DNA from: a virus
Direction: 5' to 3' (one strand)
IMG/VR virus record: IMGVR_UViG_3300043409_001491
Location: 1 to 64,000 of that record
DNA: 64,000 nucleotides
A program made the translations under genes and the position numbers. Each line of letters opens with the position of its first letter. Within the stretch, counting starts at the first letter, position 1. Below the pieces are notes generated by a model. That model worked only from the letters and a program-made list of their open reading frames with translations. It did no database searches and was not told where the DNA came from. Positions 11,577-48,064 of the stretch are shown in pieces.

Positions 11577-12493
11577 CAATATTTATATCTATAGCATCTT
11601 TCCGTGATCCAGAACTTCTCTACACTATTAAGAGCGCTATTGACAACGCAAGCAATCCAGAGAACCTACACTTTGGTGTTGTTTATCAGGGCCTGCCATT
11701 AGAAATGCCAAACTTTGACTCAGTTCCAAACCTATCTCTTGTAACTATGCACTCTAAAGAAGCCAGAGGTGCGGGGTATGCAAGAGCAAAGGCCATGGAA
11801 CTATACAACAACCAAGACTATTTCCTTCAAATTGACTCACATACAAGGTTTGCAAAAGACTGGGACACTATATGTATTGATCAACTAGAAAGGGCTAAGA
11901 ATATTTCTGGTCATTCTTCAGTTATTCTTTCATATTTTCCTGCTCCATATGAGCCAGAAAGTAATGGCGGTATGCATTTAATTAAAAAACATCCAAAGAT
12001 AAAGTCATACCCAACTAGACAAAAGATAGCATTAAACAGAAAAAATCAATGGACTGCAGAAAGACTTGAGTTTATAAATAGAGTAAAAGAAGATCCAGAA
12101 ATATCAGAGACTGTCCTTGGTGGTTTTATGTTTTCTTATGGAGCAATGGTTGGTGAACTTCCATACGATCCAGACTTAAGTTTCTTTGGTGAAGAGATTT
12201 GTTTTGCTATGAGGGCTTGGACTAGAGGCTGGGATATTTATTCCCCTGCCAAAAATATTGTTTATCATTTTTATTCTCGTGGTGGGTACTATAAGATCTG
12301 GGGAGATAGAAATCTAAGAGGCTTATCTTGGAAAGAGTTAGAAGAAATATCATACAAGAAACAAAGAAAAATCCTTTGTGGTGAAGAAGAGGGAATCTTC
12401 GGTGCTGGAAACGTTAGAACCCTTGCAGAGTATGAGATCTTTACTAATACTAACTTTAAAGATTTTTATAGTTTGACAAACCCACGGCATTAG
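11573..12493 (+). CDS. GT60-like (Skp1-hydroxyproline Gnt1-type) GlcNAc transferase
   Basis: IFISIASFRDPEL, ARGAGYAR, LQIDSHTRF..WD, FFGEE and RAWTRGWD motifs. Confidence 0.82.
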   Translation: MTIFISIASFRDPELLYTIKSAIDNASNPENLHFGVVYQGLPLEMPNFDSVPNLSLVTMHSKEARGAGYARAKAMELYNNQDYFLQIDSHTRFAKDWDTICIDQLERAKNISGHSSVILSYFPAPYEPESNGGMHLIKKHPKIKSYPTRQKIALNRKNQWTAERLEFINRVKEDPEISETVLGGFMFSYGAMVGELPYDPDLSFFGEEICFAMRAWTRGWDIYSPAKNIVYHFYSRGGYYKIWGDRNLRGLSWKELEEISYKKQRKILCGEEEGIFGAGNVRTLAEYEIFTNTNFKDFYSLTNPRH

Positions 12494-14193: not shown

Positions 14194-15225
14194 TTATGAG
14201 TTAATAATGTCTATATATTTTTCTTTTAATGACTCTCTTGAAAAATGTTCAAACCCTAAATTAAATGCTTTTGTTTTCATTGCTTCTTTATTACTAATAA
14301 TATAGTTATCAATAAGTTCAGCAAGCGATTTAGGATTAACTGACCAAACATTTACAGTTGCTTTTGCCTTAAACTTATCAATTAACTCAGCCTCCAGTGT
14401 CCATTCATCTGGCAATACCGTTGTGTTTGGAGAAACTCTGGGCATAAATACTGGTAGACCACTCATCAATGCCTCATTCATTGGTAAACATAAACCAGCA
14501 TATCTTCTAGGCAATACCATTGCATCATAGCCAAAGTACAGATCTTGCTTGTTTGCAACGTTATCAGTTTCTATAATAATTCTTTCATCTGTTGATTTAA
14601 TCTCTAAAGGTGTTTGTGTTTTAATAACTAACTTATAATCTTCCTTTGAATATTCAAGCATCTTAATAACGGTTTCTGTACCGTTGCGATCTTTAACGGC
14701 TGCCTTGCCAGCAACATGCAGAATCCTGTTATGGTCTTGTGCATTTATACTTCTTACATCTTTAAATAACTCTGCGTCAGTTGGTGGCGGTAGATGAATA
14801 ACCTCACATATATCACCATACAGTCTTCTAATATCATCTATATGCCAAGTACTTGGAGCCAATAATACATCTGGTAATGACCAGTCTGGATGTTGTAGGT
14901 TACCTAAAAATTCATAGTTATATTGAAGGATGGTTTTTATACCAGCCATTCTAGCCATATCAATAAACTGTTGTGAGTAAAAGGTTTCACAACTAATAAC
15001 AACGTCAAGGTTTCGTAAAAATTCTTTTATTTCCCCATGTCTAGGAAAACCTCTGTCTGTTGTAATGCAGTCATAACCTGCATACCACTCTGGATGCTGT
15101 TTGTTTTGATTAAAAAAACTTGAGTTAATTAATAAAATTTTGTCAGGGTTTAGCATGTTTACTAGTTCTCTGGTTTGATTACCCAGGCCAGTGTTGTCAG
15201 ATCTTGCTATGATTCCTAATCTCAT
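14194..15225 (-). CDS. GT-B (GT4-like) glycosyltransferase
   Basis: LPRRYAGLCLPMNEALMSGLPV motif. Confidence 0.85.
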   Translation of the reverse strand: MRLGIIARSDNTGLGNQTRELVNMLNPDKILLINSSFFNQNKQHPEWYAGYDCITTDRGFPRHGEIKEFLRNLDVVISCETFYSQQFIDMARMAGIKTILQYNYEFLGNLQHPDWSLPDVLLAPSTWHIDDIRRLYGDICEVIHLPPPTDAELFKDVRSINAQDHNRILHVAGKAAVKDRNGTETVIKMLEYSKEDYKLVIKTQTPLEIKSTDERIIIETDNVANKQDLYFGYDAMVLPRRYAGLCLPMNEALMSGLPVFMPRVSPNTTVLPDEWTLEAELIDKFKAKATVNVWSVNPKSLAELIDNYIISNKEAMKTKAFNLGFEHFSRESLKEKYIDIINS

Positions 15226-15980
15226 TCTTTATATCCCCAAAAATTATCATCTGTCGTAAATTTTTTATGACCATCACGACCATCTAAATGGTAAGATCTT
15301 TTAATGTTTATATCAGGATGATAGATCCATAACTTATGCATATTCCAGCCATCTTCGTTAAAAATATCATATGGCAAAATATCATCTTGAACCTTGCCGT
15401 GAAAAGTGTCTTCTATAAAAAAGAATTTGTCACATGATGGCAAGACAACATCTCTATAATAACTTTTGGTTGTTAGGTGTGGACGTTGGCTCCATTGAGC
15501 AGTCTTTAAAAACCCATCCTCTAAATCAAACATTAAATGTTCGTGAGGTTCTGGAATAAAGGCCTCAAAGTGAAAACGAATAGTATTTGCTTTGCCATAC
15601 TCAATCATGTCTAAACATTTTTCCCAATCAATAGGATCAGTTGTAAGAGGAGCATCTCCTTCAATATAAAGAAGCAATGATGTTTTTATTTCTGGCATTG
15701 TTAGTCGCATCATTCCTGTTTGGTGGATATGACTTTCAAAAACCATTGGCAGAACATTTTTATATTCATGTAAGCATTTCCATAAAATACGATTTTTATA
15801 TTCATCATAGCCTGACTTGCGGTGACTTTGTTCTCTTCTTAATCCATCAATCTGCATAATTATTTCATTATCTGGAAAATGAAATCTAATAGACTTAATT
15901 GTTTCATCTATGATATCTGTATTAGGATGAGATGGCAAAACAGAAGTTACCAAAACAATAGTTATATCTCTTTTATGCAT
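15222..15980 (-). CDS. GT-A-like glycosyltransferase
   Basis: N-terminal Rossmann-like strand and LLYIEGD (DxD-like); operon context. Confidence 0.6.
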   Translation of the reverse strand: MHKRDITIVLVTSVLPSHPNTDIIDETIKSIRFHFPDNEIIMQIDGLRREQSHRKSGYDEYKNRILWKCLHEYKNVLPMVFESHIHQTGMMRLTMPEIKTSLLLYIEGDAPLTTDPIDWEKCLDMIEYGKANTIRFHFEAFIPEPHEHLMFDLEDGFLKTAQWSQRPHLTTKSYYRDVVLPSCDKFFFIEDTFHGKVQDDILPYDIFNEDGWNMHKLWIYHPDINIKRSYHLDGRDGHKKFTTDDNFWGYKE

Positions 15981-16827
15981 TTAGTTGCTCCATTATCTTA
16001 ATACCCAGATCTCTTTTATATTTAATCCACCAACCAACAACCCTGTGCATGTTATTTGGATAGTTGTCTAGTAACTCTGGAAGAAGTTTTTCAATATTAT
16101 TCCAATTATCTACAGATTCAACAGGAAACTCAGGACCAAACATTTTTTTATAAAACTTTGTTTCTGTCATGCTTGGATCTAGTTTATCTGCAATCGGAAG
16201 GGTCAACAACTCTATTGATTCAAAGAATCTAAATGTATCTATCACTGCAGCACCAGATGGGCATGGAGCAATCTTTGCACTTGAGAGTTTAGCGTAGTAA
16301 TCTTTTGGTTTATCTCCCAGAGAGAACCCTCTTGTTGGCCCATAGAGTGAATTTTTTAGGATTGGCATAACCAATGCTAACTCTTTTCTTCTTGAGTGCG
16401 TTATCTGTCCACCAAAGTACACATCATATTCTTTTTCTTTATATTCTGGAGCGTTGTCCTTTAGGTGTTGTGGAACTCCAATTGGCATCTTGTTATATTG
16501 ATCATGCTTTTCATGAGGGTATTGAATCCATATCTCAATATTATTATGTCTAATTTTACTTACATCAAACCTAGCATTCTCATCTCCATTAATAAATAAA
16601 ACAACTCTAGAAAGTTTATTTAATTCATTAGATAGTTTATCTTCATTACCAGCAGTCTGTGGTCCAGGGATTACAACAAAGGCTTTATCTCCTTTTGGAA
16701 TTTCTGTAACCCTTATTTGATCTACTTCATGCTTATCAAATATTTCTTTTAATAATCCATAATCCCATTTGTCATTTGCATAATCTTGTCCATCATGAGA
16801 ATATAAGTATGCGCTATATTGATTCAT
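15973..16827 (-). CDS. Exostosin/GT47-like glycosyltransferase
   Basis: YDVYFGG, SAKIAPCPSG..DTFRFFES. Confidence 0.7.
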   Translation of the reverse strand: MNQYSAYLYSHDGQDYANDKWDYGLLKEIFDKHEVDQIRVTEIPKGDKAFVVIPGPQTAGNEDKLSNELNKLSRVVLFINGDENARFDVSKIRHNNIEIWIQYPHEKHDQYNKMPIGVPQHLKDNAPEYKEKEYDVYFGGQITHSRRKELALVMPILKNSLYGPTRGFSLGDKPKDYYAKLSSAKIAPCPSGAAVIDTFRFFESIELLTLPIADKLDPSMTETKFYKKMFGPEFPVESVDNWNNIEKLLPELLDNYPNNMHRVVGWWIKYKRDLGIKIMEQLNA

Positions 16828-17527
16828 AGTATAAATGAACCTCATGCTGATAGTCTAAAATTATTTCAGTGTATCCTAATCCTTTTATCCATTGTCTAAG
16901 ATTATATAAAGATTCATTCCATTGCTGTAGCATAAACTCAGGGTGTCCAGATAACCAAATCTTTGGTTTGTGCTCTCTAAGCACCCTCTCAGCCCCTCCT
17001 AGGACCCTCCACTCACTACCCTCTACGTCCAAGGAAATGGCGGTAGGGGCTTTAATACCATGATCATATACACAAGAGTCTATAGTAATCTGACCATAGG
17101 TTTCTCCTTCAAGGTATAGTTCTTTAAACCCGTGGGCTGCTTCAATTACATCGTTAACTTCTGGTGGCCATTCATCGTAATATATTCTTGAAAGACTGTT
17201 TATCTTATCAGATGCAAATCCAGGAATACAAACCATTGGAAGATCTAAATTATTTGCACTCCAGAGTAGTGGAAAGTGTGACCAGACTTTGGGGTTTGGC
17301 TCAAATACAACTACTTCCGCACCCCACATTTGACATAGTGCAGCAAACTCGCCCTCTTCTGCACCAACATAATACATAACATCTCCAGAAGAAATATTTT
17401 CAGACATGTGTTTTAGTCTTGGCTTTTCCCAACCATGTGGTTGATACCAATCAGGACGTGCAGCACGATGCTCTGGCAAAGTAATCTCAAACTCACCATT
17501 AATTATTACTTTTCTCATCTCTGTCAT
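16814..17527 (-). CDS. FkbM-family methyltransferase
   Basis: VGAEEG, FEPNP and LDVEGSEWRVLGG. Confidence 0.85.
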   Translation of the reverse strand: MTEMRKVIINGEFEITLPEHRAARPDWYQPHGWEKPRLKHMSENISSGDVMYYVGAEEGEFAALCQMWGAEVVVFEPNPKVWSHFPLLWSANNLDLPMVCIPGFASDKINSLSRIYYDEWPPEVNDVIEAAHGFKELYLEGETYGQITIDSCVYDHGIKAPTAISLDVEGSEWRVLGGAERVLREHKPKIWLSGHPEFMLQQWNESLYNLRQWIKGLGYTEIILDYQHEVHLYYESI

Positions 17528-18408
17528 TTCTGCAACCATTCTATTAATGATACCTTTGGTGTCCATCCAGTTAAACCTTTAAACTTTTCATTAGACGCAA
17601 GAGTTTCTTGTACTTCCCCAATTCTTGACGGGATAAACTTAACATCATTTGAAATCATATTAGCAATATCAATTATAGAATAGTTACTTCCATACCCAAT
17701 GTTATACACCTCACCAAAACCATGAGTTACTTCAGATGCAAGGATGTTTGCTTCTATTACATCAGATATATGTGTAAAGTCTCTGCGCTGAGATCCATCT
17801 CCAACAACTGTTAGCGGTTTGCCTTCATGGTATTGTTTTAAAAACAGTCCTATTACTGGTGCATACTGCCCTTTTAGTGGCTGTCTATCTCCATAAACAT
17901 TGAAGTATCTAAGTGATATAGTCTCAAGACCATAAAGATTATAATAAACTTTTGCAAGGTTTTCACCAAAGACTTTTGCAGCAGAGTATGGTGTTAGTGG
18001 GTCAGATGGTTGTGTTTCTATGTTTGGAAGTATTGCTTTCTTACCATAGGCAGATGATGTACTAGAATAAACAAACTTCTTTACTTTTGCTAAGCGAGAT
18101 AGTTCTAATACATTGGCAGTTCCCACTGCGTTAGACTCAATAGATTTTCTAGGGTTTAGTATTGCTGGTTGAATTCTTGCATCAGATGCAATATGAAATA
18201 CATAGTCAATTCCATTAAACAAATGTTCTATCTTGTTATAGTCACATATATCATATTTATAATTATTTGCTTTTGGGTTCCAGTAAAATTGCTCATGACA
18301 CTCTGCTGACTCATTATCTATACAGATAACATTATGACCAAGGTCTATAAGTTTATCAACAAGATTAGATCCAATGAAGCCTGCTCCTCCAGTTACTAAA
18401 CAATTCAT
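17524..18408 (-). CDS. NAD-dependent nucleotide-sugar epimerase/dehydratase
   Basis: TGGAGFIG, YSAAK, RYFNVYG and GDGSQRRDF. Confidence 0.93.
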   Translation of the reverse strand: MNCLVTGGAGFIGSNLVDKLIDLGHNVICIDNESAECHEQFYWNPKANNYKYDICDYNKIEHLFNGIDYVFHIASDARIQPAILNPRKSIESNAVGTANVLELSRLAKVKKFVYSSTSSAYGKKAILPNIETQPSDPLTPYSAAKVFGENLAKVYYNLYGLETISLRYFNVYGDRQPLKGQYAPVIGLFLKQYHEGKPLTVVGDGSQRRDFTHISDVIEANILASEVTHGFGEVYNIGYGSNYSIIDIANMISNDVKFIPSRIGEVQETLASNEKFKGLTGWTPKVSLIEWLQK

Positions 18409-19361
18409 TTAATACCCAACTCTTCTAAGATTGCAGTCCATCTATGGACATAGGTATGTTCTTTCTTTGTACGGTTGTGACCGTTGACTCTGATTCTTTC
18501 TCGTACCAAAGAGTTTTCAAGATACTGATCTATCTTATCTCTTAAGTCATTAAAGTTTCCATGCTTATAAAATACAACTTCATCAGGCATAAAGTATTCA
18601 TCTAATCCCTTAATTTCTGGGTAGATGGTAAAACCACCACGTCCAGTAGACTCAAACAATCTATCACTAGTGTAGTAAGGATAATCAAATCCTATGTTAA
18701 GACTATCTCCAACTGCAATCTTGCTCTTAGCATAGATGCGATTTAGTGCATCACCACGAATAGTTCCAGTGTCGCCATCTCCACCAACGTGAAGGAATCG
18801 TTTGCCGTATGTCTTTCTTAAGAAGTCAATTAGTTCTGGGCGATACTTATGTTCATGGTGATATCTTCTACTGCCAACAAAAATAACATCGTACTCAAAG
18901 TTTTGTGTGTCATAGTCTGGGTGGATGTAACATTCTTTATCATATACCCCTGCAGGCATGAAGTGGCCTTTTACGGCGGTATTGTGATCAAACCAATCAG
19001 CCATAAGTTTATCTACAGTAAAGAAATGACCAATAGTTCTATAGAAACTGTCATGCTTAAGATCATTTTGTCTATCAAGGCCAAACCATAAATCTAAATG
19101 ATATGTCATAGTAGGAACACCAGCAGATTTAAGTTTATTAAGAACGTCATCCATTGAGATGTTTCCACCAGTTTCCCAGCCATGTGTGTGCACCCAGATA
19201 AACAGATCAGACTCTAATGCTTTTTCTAGGATAGTTTGGGTCTTGGCCTTACGCTCCTGCAATTTTGTGACGGTATTGCCTAAAGACTCTAGACTACTAG
19301 CATGATGATTCTCACTGCTATAAGACACTTCAAAATTGCCAAGAAAAACTATATTAGCCAA
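18405..19361 (-). CDS. CgeB-like (Glyco_trans_1_2) glycosyltransferase
   Basis: YDVIFVG, YAKSKI and SDRLFE..GRGG. Confidence 0.8.
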   Translation of the reverse strand: MANIVFLGNFEVSYSSENHHASSLESLGNTVTKLQERKAKTQTILEKALESDLFIWVHTHGWETGGNISMDDVLNKLKSAGVPTMTYHLDLWFGLDRQNDLKHDSFYRTIGHFFTVDKLMADWFDHNTAVKGHFMPAGVYDKECYIHPDYDTQNFEYDVIFVGSRRYHHEHKYRPELIDFLRKTYGKRFLHVGGDGDTGTIRGDALNRIYAKSKIAVGDSLNIGFDYPYYTSDRLFESTGRGGFTIYPEIKGLDEYFMPDEVVFYKHGNFNDLRDKIDQYLENSLVRERIRVNGHNRTKKEHTYVHRWTAILEELGIK

Positions 19362-37384: not shown

Positions 37385-37537
37385 ATATCTATTATAGCCC
37401 ATACGGAGATATCATTCCAGTACTTGACACTAGTAGAGTATATTACTCTTATGTTGTCAGGTGGAGGTTTGTACTCTATTTTCGGCTTAATTCGTATCCC
37501 GCCGAATTTGAAATAAAAATAATGTATAATGGGATAC

Positions 37538-38124: not shown

Positions 38125-38541
38125 ATGTGTACTCCTACAACCGAAAAACTTGGTGCCACACCTGCCAACATTCAATGGAACGTTGTTCGTGGAGATACGG
38201 CAACGCTTAAGGTAGAGTTTTTTGAAGATGACGAAGTTACCCCATATGAGACTACGGCTTGGACATTTATAGCAACTTCTTATGATCCAGTAGCCGATGC
38301 TTTAGATTTATTAACGGTAGAGTCCTATGAAGACGGTGTTATTTATATTATTGCAAAAGCAAACATTACAGCAAACTGGGGACTTGGAAAATACAAGCCA
38401 GTAGTTTCAGAGTTAAGGTTTGACCTTCAAGCCACACTTCCTGGAGATGGAGTATCTGGCGGTGGCGGAGATGAAGTTACTAAGTGGACTCCAGTTATTG
38501 GAACAATTTGCGTAATGGGTGATGTGAGCGGTACGCTATGA
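38125..38541 (+). CDS. Putative virion (baseplate/BppU-like) protein
   Basis: RGDT...FDLQ...G.I pattern shared with the 39405 and 48752 ORFs. Confidence 0.65.
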   Translation: MCTPTTEKLGATPANIQWNVVRGDTATLKVEFFEDDEVTPYETTAWTFIATSYDPVADALDLLTVESYEDGVIYIIAKANITANWGLGKYKPVVSELRFDLQATLPGDGVSGGGGDEVTKWTPVIGTICVMGDVSGTL

Positions 38542-38635
38542 TAGTTGTAGTAACTCCAGCCCAAGTAAATATTCCTCCAGTAATTAAAGTTGGAACTAAG
38601 GTTTATAGAACACAGTCTAAGTGATAAAATAGTCT

Positions 38636-39379
38636 ATGGCAAAAAGCATGGACTCTCCACAACCCCTTAAAAGAAAAGGGTATTCTCAAGCAATTCAAGA
38701 ATCCTCTGTTCAGCAAACTACAGATTTAAAAGAATATATAGCCGTCCCTGGACTAACAGGAATTCAAGGCGAAAGAGGACACAAAGGGGACAAGGGAGAA
38801 AAGGGTGACCAAGGGCTTGAAGGATTAAAAGGTGATATAGGTAAGACAGGACCGCAAGGGCCCCGTGGAGAACCTGGAAAGGGTGCTGAGGGCTATGATT
38901 CAGTTTCTGGACAATACCCAGGATGGGTTTATTATAAAAATGGATCAGATAGGTCAGTTAATTTAGGTGCTGGTAGAGGAGATGATGGCTGGGTGACTCT
39001 TAATTTCATCCCAGATAAAGAAAAAAGCAATAGGGAATATATGCCAAGAGGATCAGAAGACCTGTGGCTTCCAGAACAAAACTTATTTAATTTTAAATCT
39101 TTAAAGATTGGGACAAAGGTAGACATAAGATATGATTTTTCTATAGCCACAGAGTCAATGAACACGGACCTTTGGATTAGAACATTTAATGAAAAATATT
39201 TAAAATCTCCAATCTCACATGTTGCAAATCTTAAATACCAGTATTCCTACGATATGTCGTTTTCTCAAACCTTATACATAGACGAGTCAAAAATTAAGAG
39301 TCATGGAGCAAGGCCACAAGCCAGAACCGACACACAGGCTTCCTTGTTTTTAAATGGTCTCTACATATCGGTTTCTTAA
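38636..39379 (+). CDS. Collagen-repeat virion protein
   Basis: (Gly-X-Y)n stretch GERGHKGDKGEKGDQG... Confidence 0.85.
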   Translation: MAKSMDSPQPLKRKGYSQAIQESSVQQTTDLKEYIAVPGLTGIQGERGHKGDKGEKGDQGLEGLKGDIGKTGPQGPRGEPGKGAEGYDSVSGQYPGWVYYKNGSDRSVNLGAGRGDDGWVTLNFIPDKEKSNREYMPRGSEDLWLPEQNLFNFKSLKIGTKVDIRYDFSIATESMNTDLWIRTFNEKYLKSPISHVANLKYQYSYDMSFSQTLYIDESKIKSHGARPQARTDTQASLFLNGLYISVS

Positions 39380-39404
39380 TGGTATAATAAACTTAGGAGG
39401 AATA

Positions 39405-39767
39405 ATGGCATTTCCAGGTACATATAATTTTAGTTACTACCGTGGTGACACGTATCAATTTATCATCCGTCCAAAAAATGCAAATGGGACAACTTTTTCA
39501 TTAGATGCCTATGATGGCAATGCCTTATTTACAATAGCCAATCGGCGTGGTAGCACGGGTACACAGGTCGCAGCAACAGCAACAATAGATACTTCAACCG
39601 ATATTGTTACATGCACAATTACTCCTGAACAAGGAAGAGAACTTGCTGCTGGAACCACATATGTTTATGACGTTCAAATTACAAATACAACCCCAACACC
39701 AGATGTGATCTTTACGCTACTTACTGGATCGATTACTGTAACTGATGATATTACTGGTGCCGCTTAA
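39405..39767 (+). CDS. Putative virion (BppU-like) protein
   Basis: YRGDT, YVYDVQ and LLTGSITV. Confidence 0.7.
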   Translation: MAFPGTYNFSYYRGDTYQFIIRPKNANGTTFSLDAYDGNALFTIANRRGSTGTQVAATATIDTSTDIVTCTITPEQGRELAAGTTYVYDVQITNTTPTPDVIFTLLTGSITVTDDITGAA

Positions 39768-40330
39768 TGACAGATGTAGTATTATCCACAGATGACTTAA
39801 CTGTTTTATCTGGACCAGAGACAATTGAACTTCTTGTTGACATTGGCCCAACAGGAACACGTGGTAGTAAATTTTTTGTCGGTATTGGAAACCCAAACTC
39901 AGATGACACTTTAGACCCACTATTAAATGACCTATATGTTAACTCAGCACCTGGATCAGATTACGGATACTTGTATCAATATGTTTCAGAGCCTGGTGGA
40001 GATACTTGGGTAGAGGTTTTAAATATTACCCCTGCAATTTATTCAAAAATACATACTGTGACTTTTGCATCAGGAACAGATGCTGATTATGGAAGCGGAA
40101 CAATTGTAGTTCCAATAACAGACATAACCTCAGTTACTGGTTTAGAGGCAGATAATTTTAGTGTTCAATATTCTATTGTTAATGCAAAACCATTAGCAAC
40201 ATCTCTTTCTTTAGTTTCAGTGTCTGGAACAAACCTTGTTCTAAACCTTCAAGCCTCAGAGTATGATGGAACTTGGGCAGCCCTTGAAACAGAGGCTTCT
40301 GTTCATCTATTTGTTTCGGTTGTGCTATAA
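39767..40330 (+). CDS. Putative tail/baseplate protein
   Basis: GPTGTRGS..G.GNP and NDLYVN. Confidence 0.65.
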   Translation: MTDVVLSTDDLTVLSGPETIELLVDIGPTGTRGSKFFVGIGNPNSDDTLDPLLNDLYVNSAPGSDYGYLYQYVSEPGGDTWVEVLNITPAIYSKIHTVTFASGTDADYGSGTIVVPITDITSVTGLEADNFSVQYSIVNAKPLATSLSLVSVSGTNLVLNLQASEYDGTWAALETEASVHLFVSVVL

Positions 40331-40348
40331 TGAATGAGGTGAAATGAC

Positions 40349-40933
40349 ATGGCATCTGAATCTATAGGCTCAATTTATCCCACAGAAATACCTGGGTATG
40401 CAGACAATGCTGACATTCAAGCGGCATTTAGACTCTACCACTATGGTTCTACAACATATAGCACTGCAAATTCAAATACCGCAAACCTTGAACCCACATC
40501 AATTGCCTTTCACCTAAATGCGTTACAAGAACAGATAACAACACTAACATCTCCAAGAGAAACTGCAGCAATATCAGCAACTGCTGCTACTGGAACTGTA
40601 CACCTTAATATAAGTACAGCATCCGTTCATATTTACACATCAAACTCAACTGCAAACTATACTTTAAATATTCGTGGAAATTCATCAACTACCCTAAACT
40701 CATTAATGGAAATTGGTGAATCTATTACAGTTACTTTTGAACATCCAAACGGTTCTACGCCATATTATGCCACTGCATATACTATTGATGGTAATGCCGT
40801 TACTCCTAAATGGCTGGGTGGAACAGCCCCTACAGCAGGAAACGCTAGTGCGACAGATGTGTATATGATCCAGATTAGAAAAACTGCTTCTGCTACCTTC
40901 ACATGTCTGGCATCTCAATCTAAGTTTGCTTAG
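40349..40933 (+). CDS. Putative tail fibre protein
   Basis: Thr/Ser-rich; [13 protein letters not shown]-terminal domain. Confidence 0.65.
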
Positions 40934-40941
40934 GGGTTAAC

Positions 40942-41775
40942 GTGCCACTATTTCGTAATCCCAGCGCAATTGGTATATTTTTAAAGTTAGCACCAACACC
41001 AACTCCAACACCAACTCCAACGCCAACACCTACTCCAACTCCGACGCCAACGCCAACACCTACTCCAACACCTACTCCTACTCCAACGCCTACTCCTACA
41101 CCTACTCCTACACCTACACCTACTCCAACGCCAGAGCCAACTCCAACACCAACCCCGACCCCAACTCCGACACCAACCCCGACCCCAACTCCGACACCAA
41201 CTCCGACACCAACTCCGACACCTACACCAACACCTACACCAACTCCAACTCCTACACCGACCCCTACTCCTGCACCTACAGAAGGAATAGTCTATCTTTC
41301 ATACTGCTATAATGGAACACCAACACAAGATGGATTCTTTGTTGATGCTAATAATGCGGTTGTACAAAATATTAACCAAGCCTGTGCTGCCTACACCTCA
41401 CTTCTTCAAGGTCTTACTCCACCAGCCACAAGTATTGTTTGTTCAATAGTATCGATGCCTGATTTGCCAGCAAGTTGTCCTCCTCCACCAACCCCTACTC
41501 CAACACCTACTCCAACACCTACTCCAACCCCTACTCCAACACCTACTCCAACTCCTACTCCAACGCCAACTCCAACACCTACACCAACGCCTACTCCAAC
41601 GCCAGAGCCAACTCCAACACCAACCCCGACCCCAACTCCGACACCAACTCCGACACCAACTCCGACACCTACACCAACACCTACACCAAGTCCAGTACCA
41701 CCAGGCAACTTCTGTGGCTTTGATTGCTTTGGAGAAGAAGTCGAGTCTTCATGTGCAAATCCATGTCCGTTCTAG
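40942..41775 (+). CDS. (Pro-Thr)n mucin/extensin-like protein with Cys-rich domains
   Basis: Two long PT dipeptide tracts flanking a Cys-containing domain, plus a four-Cys C-terminus. Confidence 0.85.
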
Positions 41776-41823
41776 TAGTCATGATAAGATATATGCTAAA
41801 CTTAGATATCAAAAGGAGAAATA

Positions 41824-42249
41824 ATGTACGCCTGTGTAGTAAAAAATAGCGAAGGAACTTGGGATGTGTTTGGATTTCTTGCATATCCAGCAAACCAGGA
41901 AAAGCAAGATAGGCTACAGGCTGCAGTGGCAAGCGGTCTTCCAATTACTGGAATGATCTTGACTCCTTATAAGTGGTCAGCAACAAATGGTGCAACTTTT
42001 AACGGTACAGAATTTACTGGAGGAAGCCAATCTCCTGTTCCACAAGACAATGATTGGTCATCAGTTAATACATTTGGGTATATTTGTGATAATGTGATTA
42101 TTGGTGCATTTATAACAAGCACTGGCACTGTAATGTGTAATCAATATAATGCAATATTTGATGATGAAACAACAATAATTAAAGTTCCAGAAAGCCAGAC
42201 AGCCAACATTGGCGATATCTGGGATGGCGAAAACATAATTAATAGATAG
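41824..42249 (+). CDS. Hypothetical protein (tail-fibre assembly-like)
   Basis: AAGGAG RBS; IGDIWDG motif. Confidence 0.7.
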   Translation: MYACVVKNSEGTWDVFGFLAYPANQEKQDRLQAAVASGLPITGMILTPYKWSATNGATFNGTEFTGGSQSPVPQDNDWSSVNTFGYICDNVIIGAFITSTGTVMCNQYNAIFDDETTIIKVPESQTANIGDIWDGENIINR

Positions 42250-42266
42250 TAAAAGTGGGGGTAGAT

Positions 42267-42494
42267 ATGTCAAAGTGGGAAGAATGGAAAGAAAGTCTTG
42301 GGGAAACAAGACCTTGGCATTTATTAGATCATAGCAAGTTGGTAGACGACAAGTCTATATCTGATGCTAGACTAAACATATGTAAAACATGTCCAGAGTT
42401 AATTAAACTTACAACAACATGTAAAAAATGTGGATGCTTTATGGCAGCAAAAACAAAACTACAAGGGGCAGCATGTCCAATAGGGAAATGGTAA
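42267..42494 (+). CDS. Cys-rich protein, paralogue of 37178..37384
   Basis: CKTC, CKKCGCF and CPIGKW. Confidence 0.8.
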   Translation: MSKWEEWKESLGETRPWHLLDHSKLVDDKSISDARLNICKTCPELIKLTTTCKKCGCFMAAKTKLQGAACPIGKW

Positions 42495-42504
42495 AGGGGC
42501 CAAA

Positions 42505-43104
42505 ATGATAAAAGAAGAAATAGCACCAGGAATAGCCGTATATAGCGATGTAATTCCAAATAGTAATACACTATATCAAGACATTGAAGAAGGAATGGCT
42601 TCTGCGGGACTAAAATGGAATGAAGCAAGTGTTAAAGAATCAACAGATCCAATGGTAAACAAAAATACAAGAGACACAAGTACTTTTGGAGTTCAATATG
42701 CAGGACAAATAAAAGATCTAACAACAACAGATCCAAGAGAAGTTTTTGGCTTAAGCCTAAATAATATCTTCTTTGAGCATTTTGACCCAGTAGAAAAAGA
42801 CTACATGGCAACATATGGAATAGGCTCAGACTGGCATGATGTTTACGGAATTTTAAAATATGGAGCAGGCCAGCAATTTACTAACCACATTGATGACCAT
42901 CCAAGTTATCACAGACGAGTATCTACTGTCTACTATTTAAATGATAACTACACGGGTGGAGAAATTAACTTTCCTCGTTTTGGAATTACCTTTAAACCAA
43001 AGGCTAATCAAATGATTGTGTTTCCTTCAACATATGTTTATAATCACTCAGTGTCTCCAGTTATTGAAGGTGAAAGATATGCCGTAGTTAGTTGGTTACG
43101 ATGA
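42505..43104 (+). CDS. Prolyl-4-hydroxylase-like 2OG-Fe(II) oxygenase
   Basis: LKY..GQ.F..HID, YLNDNYTGGE and HSVSPV..GERY. Confidence 0.88.
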   Translation: MIKEEIAPGIAVYSDVIPNSNTLYQDIEEGMASAGLKWNEASVKESTDPMVNKNTRDTSTFGVQYAGQIKDLTTTDPREVFGLSLNNIFFEHFDPVEKDYMATYGIGSDWHDVYGILKYGAGQQFTNHIDDHPSYHRRVSTVYYLNDNYTGGEINFPRFGITFKPKANQMIVFPSTYVYNHSVSPVIEGERYAVVSWLR

Positions 43105-43661
43105 AAGAGCCATTGCTAGTTAATGATGTTTTAAGTCCAGAAGACTATGCAATTCTTACTAGTGCCGTTTCAAATCCAAAATCTTTTGAATATCAAGAAG
43201 GTTTTTCAAGATATGTTGTTGCAGATAATAATCTTGCAATACTGGCAGAACTTGCAAATAAATTAATTCCTACCGCAAGAGAAGCATTTGGAAGCGATAC
43301 TTTACTTCCAACATATACATTATTTGCACACTATGAAGGACAGAACCCTGCTCCAAGTCTTTATAAGCACAAGGATGATAATGCTTGCACATACACTTTA
43401 GACATGTGTGTTTATCAGAATGAGTCTTGGGATCTGTTTGTTGAAGATAAGGCTTACACGCTTTATCCTAATCAAGCCCTTGCATACTATGGTAATGATC
43501 AGATGCACTGGAGAGAAGAATTTCCTAATCCAGAAACAAATCATGTTGCAATGGTCTTTTTTCATTTTGCAGAACCAGACCACTGGTACTTTACAGAAGG
43601 TCCAGAGTATCTTCACACTCATATTCGTGCAAATAAAGATTCTATGGCTAAAGTCATGTAA
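43101..43661 (+). CDS. 2OG-Fe(II) oxygenase-like protein
   Basis: L.KHKD..AC and HWRE...VFFH. Confidence 0.75.
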   Translation: MKEPLLVNDVLSPEDYAILTSAVSNPKSFEYQEGFSRYVVADNNLAILAELANKLIPTAREAFGSDTLLPTYTLFAHYEGQNPAPSLYKHKDDNACTYTLDMCVYQNESWDLFVEDKAYTLYPNQALAYYGNDQMHWREEFPNPETNHVAMVFFHFAEPDHWYFTEGPEYLHTHIRANKDSMAKVM

Positions 43662-44680
43662 TGAAACCTATCTTTTTTAAACTTTGGAATGCTGGATTGT
43701 TTAACCAAGTGCTAAGTTTAGAGTTAGCAGCAGGGCTTGCTCACGAAACTAAAAAACCAATAATAGTTCATTTTTTTTGTCATGATCCAAATAGAAAAAT
43801 ATATATCTCTACACCAAGTATACATTTTAATGATCAAAGAAATAATTTTACAGATCGCTCTTTTAAAAATAACCCTCACCTTTTAGACTTGTTTGATGTT
43901 AGTGCAGATCTAATTATTGTTAATGAAAAAATAGATTCATTTAAACAAGAAGAATTTGTTATAGATGAATTAGCAACTAAATATTATTATAGCAAAGAAA
44001 AAGAAATATCTGATGATGAATTATTGTTTGCAGAAGGCAGAGAAAGACTTACTTTTAATAAAAATATACATTTAAAAGGTACTTTAGGAGTCTATTCAAG
44101 ATTTTTTTATAATAGAAGTCCTGAGTTAAATGAAGTTTTGTCTTCAGTTAAGCCTAAGCAGATCTATCGGGATTTGGCTAAAAAAATATCAGAATCTCTT
44201 GGTAATTTCCAAGGAATGCATTTAAGGTTGTCAGATCATCTTGTAAGCACAGACTATCACAAAGAAGAAATAGTCAATGAATGGATAACAAAATATGAAA
44301 ATAATGGTATTCCTATTGTTTTATCTACAGATGAACCAAGTCACCGATTAGTAAATAAAAATAAGCATAGGTTTATTTTATTGGATGAATACATAGTCAA
44401 TAATTTTAAAGATGATTTTATGTCTTTGCCGTTTCAGGATGAGGTAGTTTTTGGCCTTATTTGTAATTTAGTTTTACATGACTCAGTAAATTTTGTAGGA
44501 AAATCAGGAACTACTTACACATCATATATTCACAGAAACAGGAATCAAAAAAATATTGAAACTTGGGATTTCTTTGATAATCCACCAAAAGCAGAAGGTC
44601 TTCCATATTCTTGGAATAATTATCCTAGACCAAATGATCAAAAAATGTGGTGGAGAGAGTGGCCAGAATCAAAATGCTAA
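43661..44680 (+). CDS. Protein O-fucosyltransferase-like (GT-B) glycosyltransferase
   Basis: AGLFNQ, GMHLRLSD, LSTDE and FVG..GTTYT. Confidence 0.75.
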   Translation: MKPIFFKLWNAGLFNQVLSLELAAGLAHETKKPIIVHFFCHDPNRKIYISTPSIHFNDQRNNFTDRSFKNNPHLLDLFDVSADLIIVNEKIDSFKQEEFVIDELATKYYYSKEKEISDDELLFAEGRERLTFNKNIHLKGTLGVYSRFFYNRSPELNEVLSSVKPKQIYRDLAKKISESLGNFQGMHLRLSDHLVSTDYHKEEIVNEWITKYENNGIPIVLSTDEPSHRLVNKNKHRFILLDEYIVNNFKDDFMSLPFQDEVVFGLICNLVLHDSVNFVGKSGTTYTSYIHRNRNQKNIETWDFFDNPPKAEGLPYSWNNYPRPNDQKMWWREWPESKC

Positions 44681-45618
44681 GAAACAAAGTAATTATAAAT
44701 GCCTGGACAGGAATGTTTGGAATTAGAATGCACGAATATGCATTTGCTAAAACTTATGCACACAAAAACAATATGGACCTTGAATTATTGTCAAACTGGG
44801 AAGGTTCTGTTATGTTTAAAAATGCAACAGAGTCCTTGATAGAGTTTCCAGAGTTACAAGAATATTTAAAAAATGGCGGAAGACCATTAGAAGAAAGAAA
44901 TAATGAAACATTAAAGTATTATCCAGGATCAATATACTGGAACGGTAATTGGCATCCAGAAGATCCGTATAAAAATAATAACTGCTCGATTGTTACTAAT
45001 GACACCAACGCATATCAGGAGTCTATATTTGACCAAATGGAACTTTCCTATATAAAACATATTTTTGAGTTAAGCGATTTAATAAAAGAATCAGAAGTTT
45101 ACAAGCATTGGGAATCAAAAGCAGGAACATACGATGTTGCTCATCTTCGTAGAGGAGATATTGCAGATATTAATTATAATCTTAATAATGAACAAGGCTA
45201 TTCTGTGGTATCAAAAGATTCTTATTTTTCTGCTTTTGAAAAGTTTGGGTATGACAAAGATAAAATTGAATGGATATCAAATGATCATACTAAGAAGTGG
45301 CATCAAGATAGACCAGACATGATCTTTTTGCCATGGTCTTATCCACAGGGTGCTCAGTTTGATGAAAAACTAGGCTTTGATTTTCTTGATGATTGGTTAA
45401 AGATGTATTTTGCTAGAACAATATTTAGAGGAAATAGCAGTTTTTCTTTCTGGGCAGGACTACTGTCTCCAACAGCAAAGGTTTATTCTCCAGTAGTTGA
45501 TAAACAACTAATCTATGGCCGTGATGGTTTAACAGAAGAATTATTCTTAGATTTTACTGAGGGCAATGAAAATCATTGGATGTATTCTGGCACAGATAGA
45601 AAGATAAGGATAAGATAA
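44674..45618 (+). CDS. GT11-like (fucosyltransferase-fold) glycosyltransferase
   Basis: AHLRRGD and NSSFSFWAGLL. Confidence 0.78.
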   Translation: MLRNKVIINAWTGMFGIRMHEYAFAKTYAHKNNMDLELLSNWEGSVMFKNATESLIEFPELQEYLKNGGRPLEERNNETLKYYPGSIYWNGNWHPEDPYKNNNCSIVTNDTNAYQESIFDQMELSYIKHIFELSDLIKESEVYKHWESKAGTYDVAHLRRGDIADINYNLNNEQGYSVVSKDSYFSAFEKFGYDKDKIEWISNDHTKKWHQDRPDMIFLPWSYPQGAQFDEKLGFDFLDDWLKMYFARTIFRGNSSFSFWAGLLSPTAKVYSPVVDKQLIYGRDGLTEELFLDFTEGNENHWMYSGTDRKIRIR

Positions 45619-45619
45619 A

Positions 45620-46642
45620 ATGAAAACAGCACTAGTTTTAGGAGCAGGAGGCTTCATAGGAAGCCATATGGTAAATAGGCTTAAGTCAGAAGGATATTGG
45701 GTTAGAGGTGTTGACTTAAAACATCCTGATTTTTCTAATACACAGGCAGACGAATTTATTGAGAGAGATCTATCTGTATATGAAAATGTTGAAAAAGTTA
45801 TTAAGTTTAAAGGATATCAAGGAAACTTTTACCACGAGATTCCATATCGTTCCATAGATTCATTTGATGAAATATATCAGTTCGCTGCAGATATGGGTGG
45901 AGCAGGATATATTTTTACTGGTTTAAATGATTCTCAGATTATGGAAAACTCTGCTCTAATAAACCTTAATCTTTTAAGAGCACAGTCAAGACTTAATGAA
46001 AAATATGATATAAACAAAACCAAAATATTCTATTCAAGTTCTGCCTGCATGTATCCTGACTATAAGCAGTTAGATGTTAACAATCCTGGATTGAAAGAGT
46101 CTGATGCATACCCTGCAGATCCTGACAGCGAGTATGGCTGGGAAAAACTCTTTAGCGAAAGAATGTTCTTAGCATTTAACAGAAACAATAAGATTCCTGT
46201 AGCAATTGCCAGATACCATAATATTTATGGACCAGAAGGAACTTGGGACGGTGGAAAAGAAAAGGCTCCTGCTGCAATGTGTAGAAAAGTTATACAAGCA
46301 GATGGTTTTATAGAAATTTGGGGGGACGGAGAACAAACCCGCTCATTCCTATATATAGACGAATGCATAGAAGCAACAAGAAGACTTATGGAGTCAGACT
46401 TTACTGGACCTGTTAATATTGGATCTGAGGAAATGGTTACTATCAATCAGTTGGTAGACATTGCTTGTAGTATTGAAGGCAAGGTTTTAAGCAAGATGCC
46501 TATTCCTGGACCTTTAGGAGTTAGAGGCAGAAACTCTAATAACGATTTGGTTAGAGAAAAGTTAGACTGGGACTATTCAATGTCTCTTAAGGATGGAATT
46601 CAAAAAACTTATGATTGGATTAAAAATCAAATAAATGAATAA
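45620..46642 (+). CDS. GDP-mannose 3,5-epimerase-like enzyme
   Basis: GAGGFIG, FAADMGGAG, SSSACMYP, YGWEK, EKAPAAMCRK and GVRGRNS. Confidence 0.88.
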   Translation: MKTALVLGAGGFIGSHMVNRLKSEGYWVRGVDLKHPDFSNTQADEFIERDLSVYENVEKVIKFKGYQGNFYHEIPYRSIDSFDEIYQFAADMGGAGYIFTGLNDSQIMENSALINLNLLRAQSRLNEKYDINKTKIFYSSSACMYPDYKQLDVNNPGLKESDAYPADPDSEYGWEKLFSERMFLAFNRNNKIPVAIARYHNIYGPEGTWDGGKEKAPAAMCRKVIQADGFIEIWGDGEQTRSFLYIDECIEATRRLMESDFTGPVNIGSEEMVTINQLVDIACSIEGKVLSKMPIPGPLGVRGRNSNNDLVREKLDWDYSMSLKDGIQKTYDWIKNQINE

Positions 46643-47471
46643 AACTGAAGTTGTAAAAGAATGTTTTATGCCAGATGGAATTGGCGCACAACTTTGGAGA
46701 AAAATTTATGTAATGTCATATGCAAAATATTATAATCTATTGTTTGAAGACACACCAATTACAGATTTTTTAATTCATGAATCTGATAAAGTTTACAGCG
46801 AAGAGGAAAAAATTAAATTTATTGACAAGTTTAATACAATATTAAAAAATCCTTGGAAAGGTATAGATTTTTCTAATAAGGATCATTTTTTTCTTTCTGA
46901 AAAGGTAGGCTTGGGCTATTCTAACCTATATGGACACGCAGGGCTAATAAACCCCCCACATCCATTTTTAGAAGTTGCAAAAGAGTTTAGCACTATAGAA
47001 AAAACTGAAAATAATGTAATTATTCATATACGAAGAGGAAACGTGATTCCAGAAAACCCCAGGTGGGTAGAAGAATCTGTCTATATTGATATGTTACAAC
47101 TTTTGCCACATTTTTTAAACAAGTTAAAAATTGTACCAGACAGAGTAATAATTTTTACAGATGCTTCAGATACAAATAAAAGATATAAACCCATAAATCA
47201 AACCCAATTAGATAAATGGCAACAGGGGCATTTGTATAAAGACGAAAACGATTCTTTTGAAACTACTTCTATAAATTTTGAATTATTTAGAAATTCGTAT
47301 CCAGGTATTGAGATTTTAAATAATTTAGATACTTATACGGCTTTTAATATGATGGTTATGGCAAAAGTGCTAATAACATCAAAATCTGCATTTAGCCAGG
47401 CTGCTGGATTGCTATCAAAAAACACTGTTGTGCCAATTGATAACTATGACAGTTGTTTTAAAAATATATAA
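46635..47471 (+). CDS. GT11-like (fucosyltransferase-fold) glycosyltransferase
   Basis: DGIGAQ, IHIRRGN and SKSAFS..AGLL. Confidence 0.72.
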   Translation: MNKTEVVKECFMPDGIGAQLWRKIYVMSYAKYYNLLFEDTPITDFLIHESDKVYSEEEKIKFIDKFNTILKNPWKGIDFSNKDHFFLSEKVGLGYSNLYGHAGLINPPHPFLEVAKEFSTIEKTENNVIIHIRRGNVIPENPRWVEESVYIDMLQLLPHFLNKLKIVPDRVIIFTDASDTNKRYKPINQTQLDKWQQGHLYKDENDSFETTSINFELFRNSYPGIEILNNLDTYTAFNMMVMAKVLITSKSAFSQAAGLLSKNTVVPIDNYDSCFKNI

Positions 47472-47507
47472 AAAATACCCCCAAGGATTTCTCCAAAGGG
47501 GTATTTT
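47471..47507. terminator. Bidirectional intrinsic terminator
   Basis: AAAATACCCC...GGGGTATTTT between convergent genes. Confidence 0.75.
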
Positions 47508-47518
47508 ATTACCTAAAA

Positions 47519-48064
47519 TTACTTAGGAAATTTGCTCATCCACATTCTGGTCTTAGGCGTAATGCCTTTCCAAGAAGACCAGTCGTTTCCACCATTGGAC
47601 ATGTAGTATGCAATCTCCGCATTTTTGACGGGATTGAATAGTTCAGCGTTAGAGTCAAGATCAAACTTATCTCGTCTATCTGGACCCAGTGTATCAATCA
47701 TATTAATTTGGAACATCCCGTAGGAGGAGTCCCCAGTCTTATGGTTTCCGTTAAATGCTAAGGGACGACCATTAGATTCTTTCTTAGCAATAGCCCATGC
47801 TACTACTAAGTCGTTGCCTTTGAATCCCACCAAAGAAAGCAACTTCTTTAATTCAATATCTGTAAGATTTGTTTTGTTTTCATAACGTTCTAACATTTTT
47901 GCTTTAGAAACAACAAAAGCCACCTTGTGGGTGGCAGCAGAGTTTTCAGCGTGTTTAGTTAGTAAGTTGTTTTCCGTAGTTGATGCATTGGCAAAGTTGC
48001 TAAAGGGTGCTACAACTCCGACCATTGCGAGGATTCCAATCCAAGCCTTCTTGTCTCTTCTCAT
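47519..48064 (-). CDS. Secreted lysozyme-like/lytic transglycosylase
   Basis: Signal peptide; AIAKKES, YGMFQIN, NPVKN and WSSW. Confidence 0.85.
   Translation of the reverse strand: MRRDKKAWIGILAMVGVVAPFSNFANASTTENNLLTKHAENSAATHKVAFVVSKAKMLERYENKTNLTDIELKKLLSLVGFKGNDLVVAWAIAKKESNGRPLAFNGNHKTGDSSYGMFQINMIDTLGPDRRDKFDLDSNAELFNPVKNAEIAYYMSNGGNDWSSWKGITPKTRMWMSKFPK

Follow-up and report, generated by a model that had tools for sequence, protein, structure and literature searches.

What do the 2-oxoglutarate (2OG)-Fe(II) oxygenases, whose genes are very common among the phages of aquatic viromes, act on? This question becomes testable where such a gene is linked to a proline-rich fiber protein, and one locus of this kind is found in the uncultured phage of IMG/VR record IMGVR_UViG_3300043409_001491, of which we analyzed the first 64,000 nucleotides (hereafter the window). 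At positions 40,942 to 47,471, a protein built largely of Pro-Thr repeats (the PT protein) is followed by an oxygenase of the prolyl 4-hydroxylase (P4H) family (OX1), a second protein with an oxygenase-like motif (OX2), and three putative glycosyltransferases (GTs; GTa, GTb, and GTc), with a GDP-mannose 3,5-epimerase (GME) encoded between the last two. We think that the phage probably sugar-coats its own fiber with these enzymes because related phages keep the pairing of repeat protein and enzymes. At a probability of roughly 0.55, the locus would be a phage-encoded tailoring system that hydroxylates the phage's own fiber protein and glycosylates it with L-sugars.

An initial annotation, made from the sequence alone, had proposed a hydroxylation and L-sugar glycosylation cassette at this locus. 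All of its open reading frames (ORFs) were found again at their coordinates on the plus strand (Table 1), and in sequence and structure searches the enzyme identities hold at the level of family or superfamily.

Repeat proteins accompany the enzymes in related phages

The PT protein contains 97 Pro and 83 Thr (65% Pro+Thr), and the two long PT tracts noted initially are indeed near-pure (PT)n at residues 18–113 and 180–250 (tandem repeat scores by TRF of 219 and 210), with a Thr content of 39%. A short peptide forms its N-terminus, a module with four Cys separates the tracts, and a Cys-rich tip ends the protein. In the window as in related loci, the gene of a fiber-block protein (g40349) immediately precedes that of the repeat protein, and the enzyme block downstream nearly always begins with a small Cys-rich DUF6171 protein, which is encoded in nearly all loci that cover this region.

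Co-occurrence of the enzyme set with PT-type repeat genes had been set beforehand as a test. A scan of IMG/VR with an alignment of GTa yielded 80 loci, to which one phage contig from GTDB was added (GTa 41% identical), and 62 loci (61 related ones and the window) include enough upstream DNA to be evaluated. Taking as Pro-rich any stretch of at least 40 residues at 40% Pro or more between the g40349 homologue and DUF6171, we found such a repeat protein upstream of the enzymes in 60 of these 62 loci, from two phage lineages; the other two encode (IIATP)n repeats. Across all loci, 59 of the 69 ORFs with P-tracts are the protein at this position (the slot protein). Genes for g40349, DUF6171, OX2, GTa, GME, and a lysozyme recur throughout the 80 loci. 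OX2-GTa-GME is the invariant enzyme core, while OX1, GTb, and GTc are accessory: GTc is found in about half of the loci, as is OX1, which in the GTa tree occurs in clades that also have GTc or GTb, and GTb is confined to the seven closest loci (L001–L007).

Eleven loci form a distinct group B (L008, L009, L010, L012, L015, L025, L039, L042, L043, L061, and L073) that has no matches to the lysozyme or the downstream fiber genes, and the three of them that were examined in detail (L009, L012, and L039) share only the cassette module with the present genome (BLASTP, 1e-5). The module shared by these three comprises a g40349-like gene, a (PX)n protein, DUF6171, oxygenases, GTa, a GME-like epimerase, and a small gene homologous to the one at position 37529 of the window; of the three, L009 alone has GTc. 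In L009, the module comes after two genes for major tail proteins and another two for large proteins, and an endolysin gene follows it; this is the usual fiber position of a siphovirus-type genome. Because group-B loci are interleaved with those of the present phage family in the GTa tree, the module must have moved between phage types with its repeat protein. The group-B context alone is quasi-independent, and the co-occurrence counts are otherwise phylogenetically dependent. Within the module, L009 additionally encodes a 480-aa NodU/CmcH-type carbamoyltransferase (PF16861, 3e-54; PF02543, 9e-39), and L012 has an ORF of the same size in the corresponding place; this suggests O-carbamoylated glycans.

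The slot protein is hypervariable. Its 51 distinct versions have in common an N-terminal anchor, (PX)n tracts that alternate with small modules, and a Cys-rich C-terminal tip that ends nearly every version. Anchor, tracts, and tip are constant, while the modules (fn3, PASTA, Listeria-Bacteroides repeat, or none) are swapped freely even where GTa is 96% identical. Close relatives have Thr alternating with Pro, other loci Ala, Val, Ser, or Ile, and in L008, L010, L015, and L027 the tracts are nearly without Thr and Ser (T+S 0.01–0.04) while GTa is kept.

The anchor takes one of two forms, either the peptide SPLFRxPSxIGI behind a separate g40349-type gene (conserved in 13 split-form loci) or, in many loci (e.g., L045, L057, and L064), a g40349-type domain fused with the repeat protein into one polypeptide. 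We therefore regard g40349 as the likely anchor of the repeat protein. In group-B phages, the g40349-type gene comes after the tail genes, and gene position together with the fusion to a fiber-block protein suggests that g40349 and the PT protein are part of the virion. A complex prediction for g40349 and residues 1–40 of the PT protein scored 0.02, which says nothing about binding either way. That the two proteins might be joined by programmed frameshifting or readthrough was considered and rejected because a separate Shine-Dalgarno sequence and start codon are present in every split locus and the frame offset varies among split loci (0, +1, or +2).

Epimerase and glycosyltransferases

The sugar donor is the best-defined part of the cassette. 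Residues 6–339 of the epimerase match Arabidopsis GME (2c59) at E = 2.9e-89, 67 orders of magnitude below the E-value of any other short-chain dehydrogenase/reductase (SDR), the next non-GME enzyme being at 5.4e-22. Its C143, Y172, K176, and K215 align with Cys145, Tyr174, Lys178, and Lys217 of the Arabidopsis enzyme, of which Cys145 and Lys217 are presumably the acid-base pair (Major et al. 2005), and the GxxGxxG motif for NAD is present as GAGGFIG at residues 8–14. Judged by these matches, the gene encodes a true GME with intact catalytic residues, as had been claimed; the family membership is solid. The cassette holds no genes for GDP-fucose synthesis, and the donor logic proposed at the outset, a GME supplying transferases of a GDP-L-sugar-type fold, stands as far as sequences can tell. 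To call the cassette self-contained, as the initial annotation did, is too strong: the GDP-mannose must be supplied by the host, and the window encodes a second set of glycosylation genes.

GTa is the core transferase. An alignment-based AlphaFold2 (AF2) model (pLDDT 76, pTM 0.79) found only NodZ, POFUT1, FUT8, POFUT2, or AtFUT1 among its top 17 Foldseek matches (E up to 1e-3), all in keeping with the expected O-fucosyltransferase-like enzyme and its GDP-fucose-using relatives. The window protein has no Pfam match, while PF10250 is detected in five relatives; H187-L-R189 is invariant, and the neighbors in the Atlas are NodZ, FUT8, and O-FucT. GTa is likely the initiating transferase. The AF2 model of GTc (pLDDT 88, pTM 0.88) likewise has POFUT1, NodZ, and FUT8 as top Foldseek matches, and VIA-align gave Z = 10.6 for POFUT1 (209 residues), 9.3 for POFUT2, 8.2 for FUT8, and 7.5 for NodZ. 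Invariant in GTc are H131-I-R-R-G135 and SAFSQAAG; its family of 16 members includes six weak NodZ matches and none to PF01531.

For GTb, which more likely starts at the ATG at 44674, the evidence lies in motifs and language-model neighbors. AHLRRGD (H157-L-R-R) and SSFSFWA are invariant in 26 homologues, and 26 of 30 Atlas neighbors belong to a cluster set with PF01531 on 22–31% of its members. We take motif I, HxR(R)xD with its GDP-binding Arg, and the C-terminal S-x-F-S-x-x-A to be motifs of the superfamily (Martinez-Duncker 2003). Profile-profile comparison with hhalign related GTb to GTc at a probability of 33% (E = 4.6e-4 over 138 columns) and found no relationship between GTb and GTa. 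Both GTb and GTc had been called GT11-like: the fucosyltransferase superfamily stands, by fold for GTc and by motifs for GTb, and support for the narrower assignment to GT11 ends at that level, neither window protein having a PF01531 match. PDB sequence searches with GTa, GTb, GTc, and a GT60-like protein encoded elsewhere in the window returned nothing usable.

Most relatives encode, where GTb would be expected, a conserved protein of ca. 315 aa that has no Pfam match but an SGNH-hydrolase-like GCS motif in the block ALGCSITLGQGL; an O-acyl esterase or transferase acting on sugars is a possible function.

Oxygenases

OX1 bears out the P4H-like oxygenase of the initial annotation. It matches PF13640 at E = 1.9e-18 (67.6–69 bits, curated cut-off 27), its closest solved relatives are bacterial P4Hs (the best being that of Bacillus anthracis, E = 7e-6), and H128, D130, H181, and R191 are invariant among 14 homologues, i.e., the HxD...H triad and a basic residue are intact. 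The PF13640 family includes lysyl and other hydroxylases besides prolyl hydroxylases. OX1 is the sole PF13640 gene of the present genome, whereas the complete relatives G001–G005 (101–120 kb) have 4 to 10 such genes each, often in arrays (G002, 53–61 kb; G001, 9–15 kb), so the content of the cassette does not define a phage's capacity for hydroxylation. For the same reason, and because it comes down to essentially one split of the GTa tree, the existing pattern in which the presence of OX1 and GTc tracks Thr-poor tracts is not usable as evidence: wherever OX1 is missing from the cassette, Thr makes up 6% or more, and in several cassettes that include OX1 it makes up 2% or less.

OX2 is the more enigmatic of the two. 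This conserved protein is present wherever the DNA upstream of GTa is covered, its stop codon overlaps the GTa start, and H93-x-D95, H139, and R141 reach a conservation of 90% or more across 57 homologues with 19–59% identity to it. The window protein has no Pfam match, PHROG 2954 is its only family match, and profile searches of the PDB with OX2 were empty; among 21 OX2 relatives, two have weak matches to 2OG-FeII_Oxy_2 (0.005), and a large-database profile search with the OX2 alignment returned unannotated close relatives only. In the remote homologues P0264, P0326, P0331, P0366, and P0267, an OX2-like domain is fused ahead of a dioxygenase domain of the PF13640 (P4H) or PhyH type, and in PHROG 3531 the N-terminal part (72–165) matches OX2 while the C-terminal part (276–360) matches OX1. 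The conserved triad, the size of the family (1,490 members), and these fusions argue for an oxygenase-like role, and OX2 is a probable divergent oxygenase-like domain. Of the second 2OG-like oxygenase expected here, the HxD...H motif is borne out; its membership in an oxygenase family is weakly supported.

A proposed tailoring system for the fiber and its alternatives

From the observed gene identities, synteny, and co-occurrence, we infer the acceptor, modified residue, sugar, and virion location as follows. The acceptor would be the fiber-like PT protein, joined through its N-terminus to a g40349-type protein and extending in polyproline-type (PX)n stalks to a Cys-rich tip. During late expression, GME would turn host GDP-D-mannose into GDP-L-galactose and/or GDP-L-gulose in the cytoplasm, and OX2, the invariant partner of GTa, and/or the P4H-family OX1 would hydroxylate stalk residues. 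GTa would then add the first L-sugar to a stalk hydroxyl, be it of hydroxyproline (Hyp) or, where present, of Thr, and GTb and GTc would lengthen the glycan. OX2-GTa-GME and DUF6171 would constitute the fixed core of this system, with OX1, GTb, GTc, and the SGNH-like and carbamoyltransferase genes of relatives as exchangeable tailoring parts.

Thr, which the initial annotation had considered alongside Hyp, cannot be the universal acceptor because the tracts of many relatives, being (PA)n, (PV)n, or (PS)n, are almost free of it. Since OX2-GTa-GME is kept where tracts are without Ser and Thr, a hydroxylated residue, most simply Hyp, would be an acceptor; in the present phage, Thr is equally available. 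That OX2 and GTa are always adjacent supports hydroxylation followed by glycosylation, as do the fusions of OX2-like with P4H-type domains in remote homologues. The suggested extensin- or mucin-like brush and its roles in adhesion, shielding, or resistance to grazing are speculation.

Several points weigh against such a system. GTa was the query behind all loci, and one phage family accounts for most of them, so the synteny could reflect descent rather than function, and g40349 and the PT protein are assigned to the virion by position. About half of the loci have a cassette without OX1, and relatives encode other PF13640 genes elsewhere. Comparison of OX2 with OX1 by hhalign gave a probability below 2%, the lone alignment having the HxD motifs in register. 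Moreover, (PX)n linkers are common and functional without modification in many proteins. The GME and FucT-type genes of cyanophages have no Pro-rich ORF within 29 kb, and the authors describing cyanophage S-SCSM1 read those genes as serving cell-wall synthesis or modification (PMC9602691).

The cyanophage observations lead to a different view in which the enzymes act elsewhere, either on glycans of the host envelope (to mask receptors or exclude superinfection) or on other virion proteins such as those of the capsid or tail tube, and their place beside the fiber genes is that of a hotspot for accessory genes. In the cyanomyoviruses S-SCSM1 and SynMITS9220M01, GME is accompanied by FucT-type or other GTs in non-structural regions; mycobacteriophage glycosylation hits the C-termini of capsid and tail-tube proteins rather than fibers; and in the present phage the second glycosylation gene set lies far from any repeat protein, while another protein with a shorter PT tract is encoded in the tail module. 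We nevertheless hold this view to be unlikely: the (PX)n pairing is found in all but two of the evaluable loci and survives the move into a phage type with unrelated flanks, the enzyme genes are co-oriented and translationally coupled with late fiber genes, and enzymes of the POFUT and P4H types act mostly on proteins. A second alternative keeps the repeat protein as substrate but confines glycosylation to Thr/Ser or to the Cys-rich modules, without Pro hydroxylation, and has the oxygenases act otherwise (on another residue, a sugar, or an unrelated target). The abundant Thr of the present tracts would allow O-glycosylation without hydroxylation, and the best matches of GTc are protein O-fucosyltransferases, with POFUT1 and POFUT2 coming after NodZ among those of GTa. 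POFUT1 and POFUT2 act on Ser/Thr of folded Cys-rich modules (EGF and TSR), and nearly every slot protein has its Cys-rich tip. In addition, OX2 is without a demonstrable oxygenase family, and a search for Hyp in the virions of chloroviruses, which do encode an active P4H, detected none (PMC7019647). What makes this, too, a rather improbable explanation is that OX2-GTa-GME persists in relatives whose tracts, of the (PA)n, (PV)n, or (PI)n kind, have next to no Ser/Thr, that the adjacency of oxygenase and GT is invariant and recurs in a cyanomyovirus, and that the P4H-type triad of OX1 is intact.

Finally, the cassette could modify DNA through TET/JBP-like base oxidation and subsequent glycosylation. 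DNA hypermodification by phage oxygenases and GTs is known (Pyle 2024, via PMC12619734); OX1 has a sub-threshold match to Tet_JBP (16 bits, cut-off 34.9), and group-B relatives add a carbamoyltransferase. This explanation appears very remote to us because OX1 matches PF13640 far better than Tet_JBP, because the complete 105.9-kb genome encodes no C5-cytosine methyltransferase and no homologue of thymidylate synthase/dNMP hydroxymethylase, and because the GTs have the fold of GDP-L-sugar fucosyltransferases and their genes lie in a late fiber operon.

Comparison with known systems

The fiber-tailoring system considered here has a close parallel in mycobacteriophages such as Che8, Corndog, and Myrna, in which phage GTs glycosylate capsid and tail proteins (Freeman 2023, via PMC12619734 and PMC11256854). 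As in these phages, GTs are encoded beside structural genes of a likely actinobacteriophage; theirs act in the cytoplasm on their own virion proteins, with a proposed role in shielding or surface change. The mycobacteriophage acceptors are C-terminal extensions of capsid or tail-tube subunits, whereas the candidate here is a separate Pro-rich fiber protein, and the mycobacteriophage systems have no oxygenase step, no GDP-L-sugar synthesis, and GTs of other families.

Among eukaryotic viruses, chlorovirus PBCV-1 encodes Pro-rich repeats and a P4H that acts on Pro-containing peptides, together with GDP-L-fucose synthesis and capsid glycosylation (Eriksson 1999; Tonetti 2003; PMC7019647). It thus resembles the present phage in combining a P4H-family enzyme, Pro-rich repeats, a pathway from GDP-mannose to an L-sugar, and its own glycosylation machinery in one virus. 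However, PBCV-1 is a eukaryotic giant virus whose P4H, repeat, and sugar genes do not form one cassette, its donor is GDP-L-fucose made via GMD/GMER and not GME, its capsid glycans are N-linked, and Hyp was not found in its virions.

Hydroxylation of Pro followed by a Hyp-specific GT is typical of plant and algal extensins and arabinogalactan proteins (AGPs) and of the Skp1 pathway of Dictyostelium and Toxoplasma (GT60 Gnt1), the latter being cytoplasmic and including fucose and galactose transferases. The proposed scheme shares with these hydroxyproline-rich glycoproteins (HRGPs) and Skp1 the order of hydroxylating Pro at a Pro-rich or defined site, O-glycosylating the new hydroxyl, and extending the glycan, but the cassette transferases belong to the fucosyltransferase superfamily and not to GT60, GT95, or GT77. 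A GT60-like gene does lie in the window (306 aa; PF11397 "GlcNAc", E = 5e-56), 30 kb from the P4H-family gene and outside the cassette, and is present in one of five complete relatives; PF11397 is the family (CAZy GT60) to which the cytoplasmic GlcNAc-transferase acting on the Hyp of Skp1 belongs. In actinobacteria, the likely host phylum, secreted proteins carry O-glycosylated Pro/Thr or Ala/Pro linkers (cellulase PT boxes; mycobacterial Apa), and the candidate acceptor resembles them in offering Pro-Thr or Ala-Pro tracts as O-glycosylation sites. These linkers are O-mannosylated in a secretion-coupled or periplasmic manner by a membrane Pmt with a lipid-linked donor and involve neither hydroxylation nor GDP-L-sugars.

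Gene content is also shared with cyanomyoviruses, whose GME is 60–68% identical to the present one (60% in S-SCSM1). The cluster of S-SCSM1 (ORF112–134) has O-FucT, alpha-1,2-FucT, and NodZ-type GTs and a carbamoyltransferase (PMC9602691), and its annotated order of 2OG oxygenase, GDP-fucose protein O-fucosyltransferase, and 2OG oxygenase near GME independently supports the coupling of oxygenases to O-FucT-type enzymes. These genes differ in standing in an auxiliary-gene region without an adjacent Pro-rich protein, in a phage that also has GMD and GDP-fucose synthase, and tblastn of the cassette proteins found GME and a weak OX1 match only there.

The full-text literature that we searched contained no description of such a cassette. 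If the mechanism holds, at the somewhat better than even odds that we give it, it would be a variant of phage virion glycosylation so far undescribed in that literature. The known chemistry of phage particles would come to include O-glycosylation that is coupled to hydroxylation and uses a rare sugar, L-galactose, and virion glycosylation, hitherto demonstrated for mycobacteriophage capsid and tail proteins alone, would reach receptor-binding fibers. Fiber glycans might then be a variable layer in phage-host recognition or protect from proteases or grazers, and the enzymes could become tools for producing, in bacteria, glycopeptides with L-sugars on Hyp or Thr. More tentatively, and at less than even odds, tailed phages of freshwater bacteria could perform eukaryote-style Hyp/Thr O-glycosylation in the bacterial cytoplasm, where a fixed core of an OX2-type hydroxylase, a POFUT/NodZ-type initiating transferase, and a GME supplying GDP-L-galactose would, with swappable tailoring enzymes, put L-sugar glycans on the polyproline stalks of a hypervariable tail fiber. 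Glycan and tip would then co-diversify as determinants of host range or shielding, and the abundant and unexplained P4H-like genes of viruses would gain a substrate.

Genomic setting and probable host

The complete virus record comprises 105,901 bp with 127-bp direct terminal repeats and a G+C content of 37.5%, and the window is its start. Among 50,697 isolated phage genomes, we found no close relative: megablast and tblastn with GTa were empty, and in blastn only the epimerase gene matched (65–70%, cyanomyoviruses). An actinobacterial host is likely because the genome carries a WhiB-family gene (44 bits, over the Pfam cut-off; among 14 control genomes, Corynebacterium alone had a match) and a ribonucleotide reductase (RNR) that is 60–61% identical to those of actinobacteriophages. 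The virus is probably an uncultured phage of freshwater actinobacteria; the label "ME2012-09-07" on one relative contig may denote a freshwater-lake sample, and an assignment to marine phages or cyanophages is not supported. Cellular GTa homologues, 22–25% identical and found in unrelated contexts in Acidobacteriota, allow no host assignment. Two contigs of the same phage family (L084 and L085) are binned in metagenome-assembled genomes labeled Beijerinckiaceae and Chitinophagaceae, which is probably mis-binning and no evidence of hosts.

The cassette had been placed inside the structural module. It does lie within a block of fiber-like genes (ca. 38–58 kb), but the head-tail module is separate, with portal, protease, capsid-like, tape-measure, and minor-tail genes at 64.6–87.5 kb and the RNR and a large ORF in between. 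From 38125 to 47471, intergenic gaps do not exceed 94 nt and most stops and starts overlap, as expected of one operon running from the fiber genes through GTc. The terminator predicted behind the cassette was recovered, after GTc only, by direct folding as a 10-bp G+C-rich stem (47472–47507) followed by UUUUAUU (−19.9 kcal/mol, z = −3.2); a consensus terminator scan reported no site after GTc.

Table 1. Coordinates of the cassette, its surroundings, and other features discussed in the text. Positions refer to the window unless a locus is named.
Feature	Position	Strand	Evidence or remarks
WhiB-family gene	10285-10458	+	Pfam
GT60-like protein	11573-12493	+	PF11397
Second glycan-building operon	14194-19361	-	
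Small protein, 91 aa	37529-37804	+	no informative family match
Collagen-like tail-fiber protein	38636-39379		fiber block
g40349, fiber-block protein, 194 aa	40349-40933	+	phrog_5906
PT protein, (Pro-Thr)n repeats, 277 aa, candidate acceptor	40942-41775	+	ORF translation
Small protein, 141 aa	41824-42249	+	weak phrog_14370 match; homologues in a minority of loci
DUF6171 Cys-rich small protein, 79 aa	42255-42494	+	PF19668, E = 2.9e-7 (over cut-off); phrog_13558, E = 1.4e-17
OX1, 2OG-Fe(II) oxygenase, P4H family	42505-43104	+	PF13640
OX2, conserved protein, 189 aa, core part	43092-43661	+	HxD...H motif; PHROG 2954
GTa, GT-B, fucosyltransferase superfamily (NodZ/POFUT/FUT8-like), core part	43661-44680	+	AF2 fold
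GTb, putative fucosyltransferase-superfamily GT, accessory	44647/44674-45618	+	motifs, language-model neighbors
GME, GDP-mannose 3,5-epimerase (extended SDR), core part	45620-46642	+	sequence match
GTc, GT-B, fucosyltransferase superfamily, accessory	46635-47471	+	AF2 fold
Intrinsic terminator, hairpin and U-tract	47472-47513	+	direct folding
SLT_3 lysozyme-like gene, convergent with cassette	47519-48064	-	Pfam
Tail-fiber or virion-structural matches	49569, 50037, 52864		PHROG; fiber block
Ser/Thr- and Gly-rich protein, 436 aa	56585-57895	+	
Second PT-tract protein	complete genome 85489-86337 (L095:1489-2337)		
SGNH-like protein at GTb position	L009:11091-12023, L018:11103-12059, L028:9292-10251, L072:11103-12041		
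NodU/CmcH-type carbamoyltransferase	L009:12879-14321		PF16861, PF02543

Some further genes deserve mention. The second glycan-building operon of the window encodes a GT4-like protein, two unknowns, an FkbM methyltransferase, an SDR of the NDP-sugar epimerase/dehydratase type, and a CgeB-like GT (PF13524). The second PT-tract protein could be another acceptor; its (TP)8 tract is shorter and is joined by a further Pro-rich segment, and the genes on either side of it encode a minor tail protein of 1438 aa and a tail protein. Farther down the fiber block, a protein of 436 aa, which has N-terminal repeats rich in Ser/Thr and a nearly all-Gly tract of ca. 200 residues, causes the local G+C peak of 48.8%; relatives have (FP)n-repeat proteins there. 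The small gene at 37529 may also be associated with the cassette, since its homologue directly follows the epimerase in group-B phages (L009, L012, and L039).

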